Assembly (NCBI GenBank): GCA_964016885.1
Contig: OZ024751.1
Coordinates: 37,262,001 to 37,326,000 of the forward strand
DNA: 64,000 nt
Direction: 5' to 3'
Origin: Eledone cirrhosa
Taxonomy: Eukaryota
Position numbers and translations under genes: made by a program. The notes beneath the pieces are model-generated. The model ran no database searches. It was given only the letters and a program-made list of their open reading frames with translations, and had not been told where the DNA came from. Position 1 is the first letter of the stretch. Each line of letters starts with the position of its first letter. Positions 11,950 to 61,884 of the stretch are shown here, piece after piece.

Positions 11950-12273
11950 CACACATACATGCGCTTGTTAGTTTTCATTTCAATCTATTATAAATTTGCG
12001 GTTAGTTTCTTGGTTCGACAACCGGATAGTTGTCTATATATGGTCAAAGCTCTTTTGTCGCACATTCTGTGATCTCCTCATGGGTGTAGGCCAGAAAAAA
12101 TGAGGGATAACAAATAAAACCCTAGTCACTGAGGAAGTCACAGTTTGCGTGACGAAATAGCTTTGACAATACATAAACAACCATCCGGTTATCAACCAAC
12201 TAACCAACCAACGGAACTTTATAATAAATTGAAGTGAAAACCAACAGGAGCGTGTGTTTTTATTGGCAGCATG
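11950..12273. mobile_element. Old degenerate fold-back of PLE-like family E
   Basis: Both halves align to 61400-61884, in opposite orientations; the right arm keeps a hammerhead core. Confidence 0.75.
12125..12167 (+). ncRNA. Minimal type I hammerhead ribozyme (family E, decayed)
   Basis: gtca CTGAGGA a gtcac-agtttgc-gtgac GAAA tagctt tgac; stem I gtca/tgac. Confidence 0.6.
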
Positions 12274-12713
12274 TATATTGTGTATGAAGTGCTTAGCTGT
12301 CTAAATGAATTAGCTGTCTTAAAATGTATATAACGTTGGATGATAGGTAGTCATACTCCCTTGTCAGGCGTTCTATGTTAAAAACCAATTCTGATTTTAC
12401 GTCTTTCTAAATAGCAATGGCTGCATTGGCATTAAATAAATGAGCAAATATTGATTCTATTTTGCAAACAAATACATAGGGTCGCATGCTATATATAAAT
12501 TATATATATATATATATATATATATATATATATATATATATATATATATATATATATATATATATATATATATATATATATATATATATATATATATATA
12601 AATATATATATATATATATAAATATATATATATATATAAATATATATATATATATATATAAATATATATATATATATATAAATATATATATATATATATA
12701 TAAATATATATAT

Positions 12714-12764
12714 GTTCTTCATACGGATTGGACACTACCGTAAACTCTTGGTAGATTTATCTAC
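12714..12764 (+). mobile_element. 51-bp tail-only insertion of family C within (TA)n
   Basis: Exact reverse complement of 45103-45153; (TA)n on both sides. Confidence 0.85.
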
Positions 12765-12899
12765 ACATATATATATATATATATATATATATATATATAT
12801 ATATATATATATATATATAAATATTTATATATATAAATATATATATATAAATATATATATATAAATATATATATATATAAATATATATATATATAAATA

Positions 12900-14016
12900 T
12901 TGTCATATTTGGGGAGGGTCATATTTGCGTAATATTGCCAGAATTAATAACAGAACACACTCACTGTTTGGTTGGTTTTCGCTTCTCGCTGTCTTTTATA
13001 TATATATATCTGCGATCTAACTTACTCGGTCCTCAATGTTGCCATTGACTGACCGGCGGTCAAAAATAATACAGATACAATATAGACAAACACATATATA
13101 TATAGTTTACATAATTTACATAAATCTTTCGTTGCACATCTGCAACATCGTCAGTGGTGTTATATTCATTGTTCCTCCTGTTGTGTTGTATGTCTACGCC
13201 ATTTTTTTTTTTTTTGTTCAGTCTGTCTATATATTTATTTATTTATTTGCTTGTTTGTTTATCTTATTTTATTTTGTCTTCTTTGCGCATGCGTTTGCGT
13301 GTGTGTATAGTGTTATGTGTGATGTGTGACTAGTGTGTATAGTGTTGTGTCTGCTGGGTGACTAGTGTGTGTTTATGTGCTTGTGTATGTATTTATTTAT
13401 CTTATTTTATTTATTTAATTTACCAAAGCTAAACAGAAAGAATGAGTGGAACAACAACAACACCCAAACAAACAACACTGACCTAAGAGAAGTATAAATA
13501 AATAAGTAAATTAAATTAAATAAATAAAATAAGATAAATAAATACACACTAGTCACCCAGCAGACACAACACTATACACACTAGTCACACATCACACATA
13601 ACACTATACACACACGCAAACGCATGCGCAAAGAAGACAAAATAAAATAAGATAAACAAACAAGCAAATAAATAAATAAATATATAGACAGACTGAACAC
13701 AAAAAAAAAAAAAATGGCGTAGACATACAACACAACAGGAGGAACAATGAATATAACACCACTGACGATGTTGCAGATGTGCAACGAAAGATTTATGTAA
13801 ATTATGTAAACTATATATATATGTGTTTGTCTATATTGTATCTGTATTATTTTTGATCGCCGGTCAGTCAATGGCAACATTGAGGACCGAGTAAGTTAGA
13901 TCGCAGATATATATATATAAAAGACAGCGAGAAGCGAAAACCAACCAAACAGTGAGTGTGTTCTCTTATTAATTCTGGCAATATTACGCAAATATGACCC
14001 TCCCCAAATATAACAA
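12900..14016. mobile_element. 1.1-kb fold-back element, PLE-like family A
   Basis: Near-identical inverted arms at about 12900-13421 and 13508-14016 with a short spacer. Terminus ttgtYataYttggggagggtcat is shared with family E. (TA)n on both sides. Confidence 0.85.
13755..13813 (+). ncRNA. Hammerhead-like motif (family A); mirror copy on minus strand at about 13103-13161
   Basis: CTGACGA t gttgca-gatg-tgcaac GAAA, then a possible stem III g(a)tttatgta/tatgtaaac and triplet CUA. Stem I is weak. Confidence 0.55.
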
Positions 14017-14829
14017 TATAAATATATATATATAAATATATATATAAATATATATATAAATATATATATAAATATATATATATATATATAAATATATATA
14101 TATATATATAAATATATATATAAATATATACATACATATAAATATATATATAAATATATATATATATATAAATATATATATAAATATATATATACATATA
14201 AATATATATATAAATATATATATAAATATATATATATATAAATACATAAATATATATATAAATATATATATAAATATATATAAATATATAAATATATATA
14301 TATATAAATATAAATATATATATATATAAATATAAATATATATATATATAAATATATATATATGAACATTTACATGTTTTAGTTGCAATTGACTAATAAA
14401 ATAATTAGAATTTATATATAAATGAAAAGTATAGAAATTGTTGTAGCGAGAAGCTAAGTATTCCATAACATATATATTTATATATACATGTGTATATATA
14501 TATACACGTGTGTGTGTGTATAAATATATATATATATGTGTGTATGTCTGGTTGTGTGCTACACAACATCATGGCTCTCGGTATTAAAAGGTTGTCAGGC
14601 TACACATCAGGAGTTCCTATAACGGTCTCACGCCCGCTGGCTCGTGCTGATAACATATATTAGGGCTTAATGCAACCGCCGACTGACTAGTTGGAAGGCA
14701 GAGCAAGAAAGAGACTGAATCAGCGGGTATATATATATATATATATACATATATATATATATATATATATATATATATATATATATATATATATATATAT
14801 ATATATATATATATATATATATATATATA

Positions 14830-59379: not shown

Positions 59380-59875
59380 GATGCCACTGTGGAACCTGGT
59401 AGATGAGTTCAGCCTGTATCTGTTCCCTTGTCTACACAGTGTAGGTTGGCTCTTTCGGCACGCCGTATTGAATGATAACACCAGAAGAAACCTTGACGTT
59501 CACATCCCAGCTGGAGCCTCTAAGATTCTTGCTCAATGACGGAAAGCCCTCAGATGGGATAAGCCTTCTCTCGTTTGAGAGATGTGTGCAACTAATCAAG
59601 GATACGTTGTGACACATTCTCTGCTTCCAACCTCTTCACTCTAGCCACAAATCCGAGTTTCCTAGCCCATAACGCACATGAGAAGAAGATTACCAAATAT
59701 CGAGGTTTGAACTATCCTGTTTGGGCCGCTTGCCATCGGTATCCTCGATATCTTGACTCACGTCTTTAAATGCAAAACCCATGGAGCTCATCCCACCAGA
59801 GAGAGGATCTCAGGAGGTGGAATGGCTGACGTAGCTGGGTCGCAGGCCATTTTTCTATGGCAATCATTTCGATAT
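59380..59875 (+). pseudogene. Decayed CRE-like non-LTR retrotransposon C-terminus (zinc knuckle + restriction-like endonuclease)
   Basis: Frame-shifted translation VDEFSLYLFPCLHSVGWLFRHAVLNDNTRRNL...DGKPSDGISL...CDTFSASNL...EKKITKYRGL...EVEWL...GN follows the CRE-type pattern RHxxLND, DGKRPDG, AExxKxxKY, RExxWL..RGN. Confidence 0.7.
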
Positions 59876-61259
59876 CCTTTTCGCAGGCACACCTGAGATA
59901 TATCACCTAGCATAAGATGTAGAGTTTGCAAGCTGATATCCTACATTCTTTACATTTGTATTGTCTTTTCCTCACCCACTTTCTGTCTCGTTTTTATTGA
60001 TGCAATAATATTCACTATTATCAATTTCATTGCGTGCATTCATTGTATTTCAAGTGCAAATCTCTGTTCCTTATTAATATATAGAACAATTTATTACATT
60101 TTTATTTATGTCTTATCTATGTATTTCAACATCATCTCTCACATTGTCAAAAGAAAGCCTGAGGTAAGGCTAGATCTGACGTGTAGTATACGTGATGAAT
60201 TTCCTCTCAGCTTCCTAGACTTAATATGCATGATATTTGTTTCCTTCTCAGCATCTATTCCAATAGGTGGTCCTAACTAGCAAAAGTCGAAATATAAACT
60301 GACGTTAGCAGAAACCGCATGAGAGATAGAGAAACTGCTATCACTGCTATAGTTCATTGCATTCATTACAATAGCTTTGAGCTTAGAGCTTTATTCTAGA
60401 TTACATATAGTCAAAGCTAACAGCGTTCTGTTATATTACGAAGCAGTACCTTCATTAATACGAATATGAACAGACTGAAGGTTATAACCTTAAATCATAA
60501 CTGATGGAAAACGGAACTTGAAGTGCAGTGTTGAAGACAGTAAGACAAATACTAGCGGCGTCCATCTAGAGTAAATATAATGTAATGCAATTATTTCTGG
60601 AATGCAATTTCTAATATTTATGACCAACATTTTATTTTATGTAATAAAGAAAGCTATATTATAAGTTGTAGCCTCATACAATGGAAAGATCTTGTGTCTC
60701 AATTTCAAAACTTACTTCTTACACTTTATATAAAATATATTAACATTTTCGCGAAATTCCACAGCGCCAAGGAAACTCATTGCTCCTCCATTACGATCAG
60801 TTTTCATCTGTATGTGAGAAACGTAAATTTTATTGCATTGTTTTATAGCAAATGTTGGTTTCCCCAACTACTTTTGATATACATAAAATATTTCAAGTGC
60901 ATTCCTTCTGCCATGATAGAGTTCGTTTGATATATTGAGTATTCTTTGTCTAAGGATATGAATCGAGAAAGTCATCAGAACAACTGATTACATACCTCGG
61001 CTATTTAGTACATCTCTCTATGTTCTGAGTTCAAATCTAGTCGACGTTAATATTCGGGTATCATAAACAATCTTTGTTATATATTTACTCATCACTCAGT
61101 TCTACAGTCATTGTATTAAAATACAATGGAGAGTAAAGCGGTTAGAAGAGAAATGACAACTGTTAGAAAATACATTCAAATGTCTACGTGCGTGAATCTA
61201 TCGAAGTATGTATCTCATATATATATATATATATATATATATATATATATATATATATA

Positions 61260-61303
61260 TATTTGCTTGTTGTATCCCGACAATTTAAATAGATCTTTTA
61301 CAT
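61260..61303 (+). mobile_element. Diverged tail-only fragment of family B within (TA)n
   Basis: atttgcttgttgtatcccgacaatttaaatagatcttttaca aligns to 15161-15204. Confidence 0.7.
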
Positions 61304-61340
61304 ATATATATAAATGTCTAATATATATATATATATATAT

Positions 61341-61884
61341 TTCGTTTCTGAATTTGTTTAGCAAGATTCTTTATCTGAAAACGTGTGTTGAAACTGATAT
61401 TGTTATACTTCATGTTGCCAATAAGAAACACACGCACCAGTTGCTTTCACTTCAATTTATTATAATAAATTTATAAATTTAGGAATTTATAAATTTCCGG
61501 TTGGTTGGTTGGTTCCACAACCATATGGTTGTTTATATATTGTCAAAGTTCTTTCGTCACACATTATAAACACACAAAGAATATAAACACACACAGACAC
61601 CCGGATGTAACACATGCGCAAACTAAGCACACAACACACACACAAAAACAAGATGGCGTAGGAAAGAACAAAGGAGAGGCACAAAAAACAAAGAAAAGAA
61701 CCTCTAGTTACTGAAGAGGTCACAGAATGTGTGACGAAAGAACTTTGACAATATATAAACAATCATCTGGTTGTGGAACCAACCAACCAACCGGAAATTT
61801 ATAAATTTATTATAATAAATTGAAGTGAAAGCAACTGGTGCGTGTGTTTCTTATTGGCAACATGACCCTCCCAAAGTATAACAA
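61341..61884 (-). mobile_element. Fold-back PLE-like insertion, family E (most complete copy)
   Basis: Tail 61341-61399. Arm 61400-61566 is inverted relative to about 61725-61884. (TA)n on both sides. Confidence 0.88.
61707..61749 (+). ncRNA. Minimal type I hammerhead ribozyme (family E)
   Basis: gtta CTGAAGA g gtcaca-gaatg-tgtgac GAAA g aa CTT tgac. Confidence 0.78.

Follow-up and report, generated by a model that had tools for sequence, protein, structure and literature searches.

Which kind of element has left long inverted repeats all along a 64,000-nucleotide stretch of the Eledone cirrhosa genome (contig OZ024751.1, positions 37,262,001 to 37,326,000; hereafter the window), and how were these fold-backs made? 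The window, which has about 30% GC and plentiful TA repeats, contains seven of them in five sequence families (A–E), all at the places given in a preliminary description based on the letters alone. Our analysis indicates that the repeats are almost certainly the 5′-truncated, head-to-head ends (pseudo long terminal repeats, pLTRs) of autonomous Penelope-like elements (PLEs) that lie in (TA)n and carry minimal type I hammerhead motifs. The fold-backs are probably PLE ends made by two starts of the reverse transcriptase (RT), one at each of two fixed sites.

The fold-backs and their coding parents

The seven fold-backs are listed below by position and strand, followed in brackets by the span of the inverted repeat without tails. 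"Tail" denotes the sequence between the two fixed 3′ ends of a family, and "5′ wall" the site at which 5′ ends pile up. Core positions carry their strand as a sign.

11957..12273, both strands (11957-12273): family A fold-back, old and decayed; both 3′ ends missing, no (TA)n border; core CTGAGGA at +12129 with mismatched helix III, decayed − core near 12080
12900..14016, both strands (12900-14016): family B fold-back, Neptune-like PLE end; neither arm tailed; cores −13154 and +13762, arms extending 267 and 351 nt upstream of the core; helix I of 2 bp only
14830..15200, both strands (14830-15113): family C fold-back, Hydra-type PLE end; tail at about 15114-15200, on the + arm only; cores −14927 and +15016; helix III ATATGTAT, self-complementary; NUH = AUA
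18235..18697, both strands (18324-18696): family C fold-back; − arm tailed; cores −18422 and +18598; centred on the 5′ wall, which lies 88 nt upstream of the core
43925..44781, both strands (44082-44781): family D fold-back, Hydra-type; tail 43925-44081 on the − arm; helix III ACGTACGT; cores of the U3-A8 type (TTGAGAA) at −44167 and +44696
45103..45676, both strands (45240-45673): family E fold-back, Hydra-type; tail 45103-45239; cores −45442 and +45471; centred on the 5′ wall, itself 7-8 nt upstream of the core; 114-nt helix II, helix III ACGATCGT, 8-bp helix I
61341..61884, both strands (61410-61865): family A fold-back; − arm short, tailed and without the 5′ half of the core; + arm longer and untailed, core +61711

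Every window copy of families A–E lacks a real open reading frame (ORF), as the preliminary description had noted. The arm of each family was searched against its own genome, 40 candidates being scored for each out of 222–1560, and 30 loci were kept (numbered with the prefix L). In these other genomic copies all five families run into reading frames with RT and GIY-YIG endonuclease (EN) parts. Family B forms pLTR-ORF-pLTR tandems with a unit of 4.14 kb (L151, L153) and a 1,193-aa frame in L153, whose catalytic motif is YVID there and YVDD in L152 and L154. For family C a tandem with 4.2 kb spacing surrounds an RT frame (L158), and RT/EN frames lie upstream of the repeat in L161 and L165. Family E forms a tandem with a 5.58-kb unit (L155), family D shows inverted ends flanking a disrupted RT-EN frame (L157), and in family A an EN frame lies directly upstream, with copies running from EN into the repeat (L033, L054 and others). 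The common terminus of A and B coincides with the start of their ORF (MTLPKYNN in L151).

These features correspond to those of EN+ PLEs: a single ORF with RT and C-terminal GIY-YIG, recognized by motifs, look-alikes and homologues, together with partial pseudo-LTR tandems (L151, L153, L155, L158), an inverted 5′-truncated copy and a one-ended tail. Atlas look-alikes of the parent frames were found at 0.96-0.97, part of their members carrying RVT_1/GIY-YIG, and the family B protein has as its best homologue a named RT-domain protein of Octopus vulgaris (69% identity). Two observations weigh against this assignment: a Pfam search returned an RT or GIY-YIG hit in 0 of 7 frames, and among the frames inspected none was both whole and catalytically intact (L153 carries YVID). 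The PLE origin, truncation and inverted pseudo-LTRs suggested in the preliminary description are thus borne out by the parents, the tandems and the one-tailed fold-backs, and the arm search with extension that it had proposed reached RT + GIY-YIG frames in all five families.

The clade assignments rest on motifs. Families C, D and E fit the Hydra clade: RIRWR, RVRWR or RVRWK together with SDKT occur in L161, L155 and L163, the RWK/DKT motif of family D being read via its relative L163 (repeat 72% identical). A CxCX5C linker, a late CxxC and CxH without CCHH were found as a full set in L165 and L155; in L157 CxxC and CxH are present and the linker is decayed, and L163 has the linker. Furthermore, the ends of these families abut (TA)n in 73 of 83 (C), 42 of 49 (D) and 48 of 51 (E) cases. 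Families A and B appear Neptune-like (Neptune or Nematis), judged by motifs and not by an RT tree, with a CX2-5CxxC linker and endonuclease CCHH: CTNRKCIIC and H..H were read in L153, and the A frames show the same pattern.

Some further properties of the parents were noted. In the B frame the RT is preceded by a long Asn-rich insert (L153:1923-5501), as is reported for rotifer Penelope elements (PMC3846280). A hand-counted 74-nt GTATGT...TTAG segment separating the E tail from the likely start codon (L155, about 2955-3028) looks like a leader intron; that of Penelope measures 75 nt (PMC2377424). PLE copies of different families share (TA)n arrays and are often directly adjacent (L009/L163, L023/L164, L024/L162, flanks of L153).

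The 5′ wall

The 5′ ends were evaluated in a less biased set, consisting of evenly spaced genomic stretches and of incidental copies not retrieved by the family's own query. In family C, 7 of 23 ends fall at 77-88 nt upstream of the core and 0 at 89-217; in family F, a sixth family found in the genome sample described below, 10 of 17 fall at 65-76 nt. Under a constant-hazard null the corrected p values are 8e-4 (C) and 2e-6 (F). For family E, 18 of 28 ends lie no more than 18 nt from the core, most of them at 5-10, and two of five unbiased copies agree. In three families that differ in sequence (C, E and F), the wall coincides with the A of an initiator-like YCA word. An untemplated G stands at the wall in L013, L123, L130, L136 and L238 and in one read-contig junction.

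The wall is somewhat more likely than otherwise to be a transcription start, as judged from the position of the ends and the words around them. In L1 and SVA, an untemplated G is the mark of a capped template, and the Penelope promoter sits in the pseudo-LTR (PMC2377424), which fits a transcription start inside these repeats. Several points speak against a sharp, capped start: the wall of family A is broad (5 of 16 ends at 53-64, p 0.02), the family E loci are query-biased, and the wall windows were picked after the data had been seen. Moreover, a G precedes the wall in 10 of 38 cases (p = 0.10, a crude count with double-counted arms and at least three mislabelled rows), and the sole pointer to a cap is a hand-picked subset, the nine junctions that neither an arm nor a TA run explains, five of which have a G. 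A stall of the RT or an RNA processing site would account for the wall as well, and the AATAAA/TATAAA-like word about 10 nt upstream of it in long C and E copies, like the non-significant G excess, would suit such a site. We consider this distinctly less likely, because the A of YCA is kept in three families of different sequence, an untemplated G recurs in the five loci and the read-contig junction named above, and an initiator-like TCACT is found in a rotifer pLTR (PMC3846280). A splice acceptor was also considered and rejected: C copies keep bases upstream of the nearest AG, and E has no AG.

About 60 nt upstream of the core, families A and B share the word AA[AG]ATGGCG (window about 61650-61660 and 13710-13720), at which the 5′ ends of family A cluster. 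We take this word to resemble a YY1 site.

Two fixed 3′ ends and independent arms

In every family the 3′ ends fall at two fixed positions separated by 58-163 nt. The distribution is bimodal in A (+176/+236), C (+105/+185), D (+89/+252) and E (+205/+349), and family B ends at about +257 with a further 58-nt tail. A TA run adjoins 331 of 366 classifiable ends compared with 6.5% of background positions, in line with the (TA)n targeting proposed earlier. Among 99 fold-backs, one arm is tailed in 94, neither in five and both in none; simple arithmetic predicts about 22 tail/tail fold-backs if the ends were independent. In the tandems the tail runs on into the leader or ORF of the next unit, which is also the arrangement in the anole element described below (PMC11167929).

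Arm lengths could be compared for 70 of the 94 pairs, the rest being A/B cross-matches or having a gap of more than 40 nt. The tailed arm is longer in 29 pairs, the untailed one in 18 (for example 860 vs 177, 960 vs 181 and 1215 vs 63), and the arms agree within 10 nt in 23; no correlation of arm lengths was seen within any family in these 70 pairs. Most arm junctions overlap by a few nucleotides.

Consistent 3′ ends, (TA)n borders, a single tail, independent arm lengths, the 5′ wall and the lack of a pile-up at the ribozyme cut form the basis of the mechanism that we propose, in which two-site priming is the element we moderately favour. In vitro, an anole PLE cuts and extends both target strands, its RT starts at two internal sites bounding the tail, and the template is mainly RNA that has not been cleaved (PMC11167929). 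In our proposal, one target end would use the outer site for priming and the other end the inner site, perhaps with a single RNA serving both by strand displacement. From both starts the RT would likely run toward the RNA 5′ end, and the two cDNAs may then be joined via short microhomology. Many short copies would be cDNAs of a capped 5′ leader that stop at the transcription start.

The same PLEs could also have produced the inverted arm by self-priming, with the first cDNA or an antisense RNA folding back and the tail being trimmed later on one side. The centres of the fold-backs are often near-perfect palindromes, which have been read as self-priming (PMC3846280), an antisense RNA having been proposed by Arkhipova et al. 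(2013); the 23 pairs with arms within 10 nt, some of them far from the wall, are equally suggestive. Against two primings stand several long pairs with near-equal arms away from the wall (445/444, 538/531, 615/599), which snap-back fits too, and the pair counts were drawn largely from query-retrieved loci. Such near-equal long pairs are compatible either with snap-back or with two cDNAs running off the same RNA end. However, a snap-back copy of a tailed cDNA cannot outreach its template at the 5′ side, and a copy of an untailed cDNA cannot acquire a tail. The 18 pairs with a longer untailed arm are therefore impossible by simple snap-back, which makes two primings the better reading, and in the window (45697-45960) a 250-nt untailed arm is fused to about 13 nt of tail. 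Consequently, we regard self-priming as unlikely.

The ribozyme cut and other origins

The preliminary description had taken the repeats for truncated or non-autonomous PLE/retrozyme-like RNAs. In a separate retrozyme-like class, non-autonomous RNAs would be excised by the hammerhead, circularised and re-inserted. Type I hammerheads with a dimer-type helix III would suit this class, and retrozymes have been argued to derive from PLEs (preprint 10.64898/2026.07.22.740005). Nevertheless, every family continues into an RT-EN frame, the tandems are whole coding units of 4.1-5.6 kb, and a short hammerhead tandem array was neither present in the window nor noticed in the loci read. Furthermore, copies do not begin at the ribozyme cleavage site: of 285 anchors situated immediately downstream of the predicted cut, 257 still have the core on their upstream side, and among the other 28, many of which are false anchors, point mutants or deletions, at most two begin, ambiguously, at the cut. 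The retrozyme class is therefore largely refuted and very improbable.

Miniature inverted-repeat transposable elements (MITEs) or fold-back DNA transposons of the DDE family, for which long inverted repeats and TA targets might speak, are refuted by parents that encode RT + GIY-YIG, by the absence of a transposase-like frame from 15 long stretches and by arms that are unequal and variable from copy to copy, with one end tailed; the DDE transposase that would have overturned the earlier PLE proposal did not turn up. Assembly or chimeric-read artefacts, suggested by near-perfect arms (97-99%) in two window copies, are hardly credible either: the arms differ by 1-20%, the tail rule recurs in five families, and in contigs belonging to four public runs of unspecified type (all one study, which may represent the sample behind the assembly) TA borders each of the fixed E ends and the wall shows several different junctions.

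Hammerhead motifs

The preliminary description had counted about 11 hammerhead cores. The cores are real and score better than shuffles, but their number is 13 with both boxes intact, all within families A–E: +12129, −45891 and +61711 in A, two each in B, D and E, and four in C. The descriptor check that it had recommended gave matches above the shuffle level in both settings, with nine matches for the loose descriptor against 2.5 ± 1.6 in 60 shuffles (maximum 7) and three for the strict one against 0.03; a relaxed descriptor listed 11, nine in families A–E and two chance-like. Likewise, helix III and NUH are present in B–E as described, but are not confined to them, since family A also has both (AGAACU, then U/A) with a helix I of 4-5 bp. 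The minimal type I core (C3-A9, G12-A15, U16-H17) with helices I and II and a palindromic helix III is complete in A, C and E. Helix I of family B comprises just 2 bp, both in 47 young copies that are identical and in older copies; family D has the U3-A8 variant with a bulged helix I, and the core of family E is interrupted by the 114-nt helix II rod (fold z = −4.5). Monomer folds of A–D were no better than those of shuffles (z −0.6 to −1.1). The proposed Rfam check failed to recover them: no hammerhead was hit in the window at the gathering score, none at E≤10 on two window cut-outs, and none among the best 150 of 283 matches for the window.

Covariation was analyzed in 20 C copies taken from 32 non-redundant rows plus the window copy, leaving out rows truncated inside the ribozyme and false matches to TA runs. 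Double-sided changes in helix II occur at four pairs (20 cells vs 8.5 ± 2.3 shuffled, 0/500), and its cells are paired in 93%, slid controls reaching 37-55%. The stem covariation that had been called for is thereby found in helix II; two of five measures, the count of covarying pairs and the pair types, do not exceed the shuffles, and the shuffle control ignores relatedness, both of which weaken the case for selection. In the genome sample, helix III is self-complementary in 70 of 87 hits of the relaxed descriptor, its sequence varying by family. Self-complementarity kept despite sequence change is what the dimer model predicts (PMC4209133). The hammerhead is likely under selection in active elements and would act as a dimer via its self-complementary helix III, while in most dead copies it would be a passenger.

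When whole fold-backs were folded, the 5′ core was predicted to pair with its own antisense arm in six of the seven window copies, with a mean unpaired probability of 0.00-0.14; the exception is family A at 61341 (0.61). According to these predictions most hammerhead motifs are likely silent, and "load" below means motifs, not activity. A search for sequencing runs containing the E unit listed no RNA run. If transcribed, the fold-backs would give 150-500 bp of near-perfect double-stranded RNA, which, speculatively, may serve as editing or small-RNA substrates.

Genome-wide load

The genome was sampled by 100 evenly spaced 10-kb stretches (L226-L325) on contigs C1-C9 and C28, which represent about 73% of it, 80 of the 100 coming from C1-C4. 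The strict descriptor gave 56 motifs per Mb compared with 1.1 in 10 shuffles, and the relaxed one 87 per Mb (bootstrap 59-119) compared with 0-3, with a similar density across strata (71 in 80 stretches, 16 in 20). Extrapolated to 3.0 Gb, this corresponds to about 1.7-2.6 × 10^5 motifs genome-wide, and the very large load anticipated in the preliminary description is indeed found; the window is denser than the genome average. By homology, the five families amount to 53 arms per Mb (A 20, B 7, C 24, D 1, E 1). Of the 56 strict hits, 21 belong to A or C, the rest to other families; at least eight further hammerhead families occur in the sample (helix III, for example, ATGCGCAT, ACCACTGGT, ACTAGT, ACTAATTAGT and ACGT), and the two that were inspected are fold-backs or abut TA, like A–E. 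For comparison, 126,247 type I hammerheads are reported for axolotl with a different descriptor (PMC7229834), and about 9,000 in Xenopus tropicalis and 4,000 in coelacanth in total, by a descriptor that is not like for like (PMC4209133).

Taken as a whole, we tentatively suggest, with rather less assurance than for its parts, that this is the densest hammerhead load found on record (about 2 × 10^5 in 3 Gb, in more than 10 PLE-type families). The fold-backs would then be a fossil record of PLE integration, in which a dimeric RT-endonuclease primes both cut strands at two internal sites of a capped, uncleaved sense RNA, most products being abortive leader copies joined head-to-head.

Relation to known elements

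The elements are new PLE families in known clades with known ribozyme motifs, and in kind they are ordinary. Craig et al. (2021, PMC8557442) list Hydra-1_Obim of Octopus bimaculoides, which has a hammerhead and targets (TA)n, so that the kind is already known, in the genus Octopus. Families C, D and E resemble the published Hydra clade in RW[RK], DKT, the CxCX5C linker, the late CxxC and CxH and the absence of CCHH, as well as in a hammerhead near the 3′ end and (TA)n targets. They differ in size, with units of 4.2-5.6 kb and 3′ untranslated regions of 1.4-2.7 kb whereas published units are generally below 3 kb, in their tails (80-163 nt, compared with 30-40 published for PLEs), in the presence of several high-copy families, and in the 114-nt helix II of E and the U3-A8 core of D; the printed Hydra-1_Obim hammerhead differs from all of A–E (all PMC8557442). 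Families A and B share with Neptune/Nematis the C-terminal GIY-YIG with CCHH, the CX4CxxC linker, microsatellite targeting and a tail overlapping the ORF start, but have DKS instead of DKG and, in B, the Asn-rich insert.

Published minimal hammerheads (PMC4209133) likewise show the type I core, an extra base after A9 (here in A, B and E), a palindromic helix III, the U3-A8 variant, opposite-strand pairs 100-700 bp apart and mostly truncated copies; the difference lies in the density of 56-87 per Mb. With the anole Poseidon PAc (Frangieh et al. 2024, PMC11167929) our families have in common two internal RT starts bounding the tail, AT-rich targets and, as proposed, an uncleaved template; in its main text, as far as accessible, the two sites are not tied to two inverted arms and no 5′ wall is described. 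Non-LTR retrozymes (Cervera and de la Pena 2020, PMC7229834) also have type I hammerheads and a very high copy number; they are non-coding short tandem repeats, whereas the repeats here are inverted ends of coding elements.

What seems to be new is the motif load, the rule of one tail with either arm being longer, and the pile-up of 5′ ends at one initiator-like YCA site, not at the ribozyme cut. In the literature within reach, which excluded most subscription papers, no octopus genome-wide hammerhead load, PLE twin priming or PLE cap G was found, and in the accessible part of a 2026 Octopus vulgaris repeat annotation the words "hammerhead" and "ribozyme" do not occur. Published work names two questions as unsettled, how PLE insertions come to be inverted and tailed and whether sense or antisense RNA is the template (PMC8557442, PMC3846280). 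Combined, the rule of one tail, the independence of arm lengths and the 5′ wall yield a specific model, which could be tested in the PLE system already available in vitro. Where annotation is concerned, short palindromes that pass for MITEs or unknown repeats, tens of them in each Mb, become assignable to PLEs, and Rfam misses their ribozymes. The families furthermore constitute a natural library of minimal hammerhead variants, including the 114-nt helix II, the U3-A8 core and the 2-bp helix I.

Further features of the window

Apart from the seven fold-backs, the window contains the following pieces of families A–E:

12715..12761, + strand: family E tail alone (last 47 nt), inside a (TA)n array; 100% match to 45106-45152
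15443..15500, both strands: miniature family A piece, − inner end fused to + tail end (direct reading of the sequence)
35525..35603, + strand: family C tail alone, then (TA)n
45697..45960, − strand: family A untailed arm with core −45891, head-to-head with about the last 13 nt of an A tail
55095..55240, − strand: B-like 3′ end, older, without core

A 74-nt inverted pair (92%) at 54916-54989 and 55261-55333 flanks a TA run with the B-like fragment and is possibly another fold-back family, split by later insertions. On the − strand, 34534-34932 encodes a 132-aa fragment nearly identical to the end of a LINE-type RT frame (LINE for long interspersed nuclear element) in L024/L162. An unrelated 180-nt repeat occurs in four copies that are 84-90% alike (3649-3833, 10746-10933, 32931-33124 and 38233-38416).

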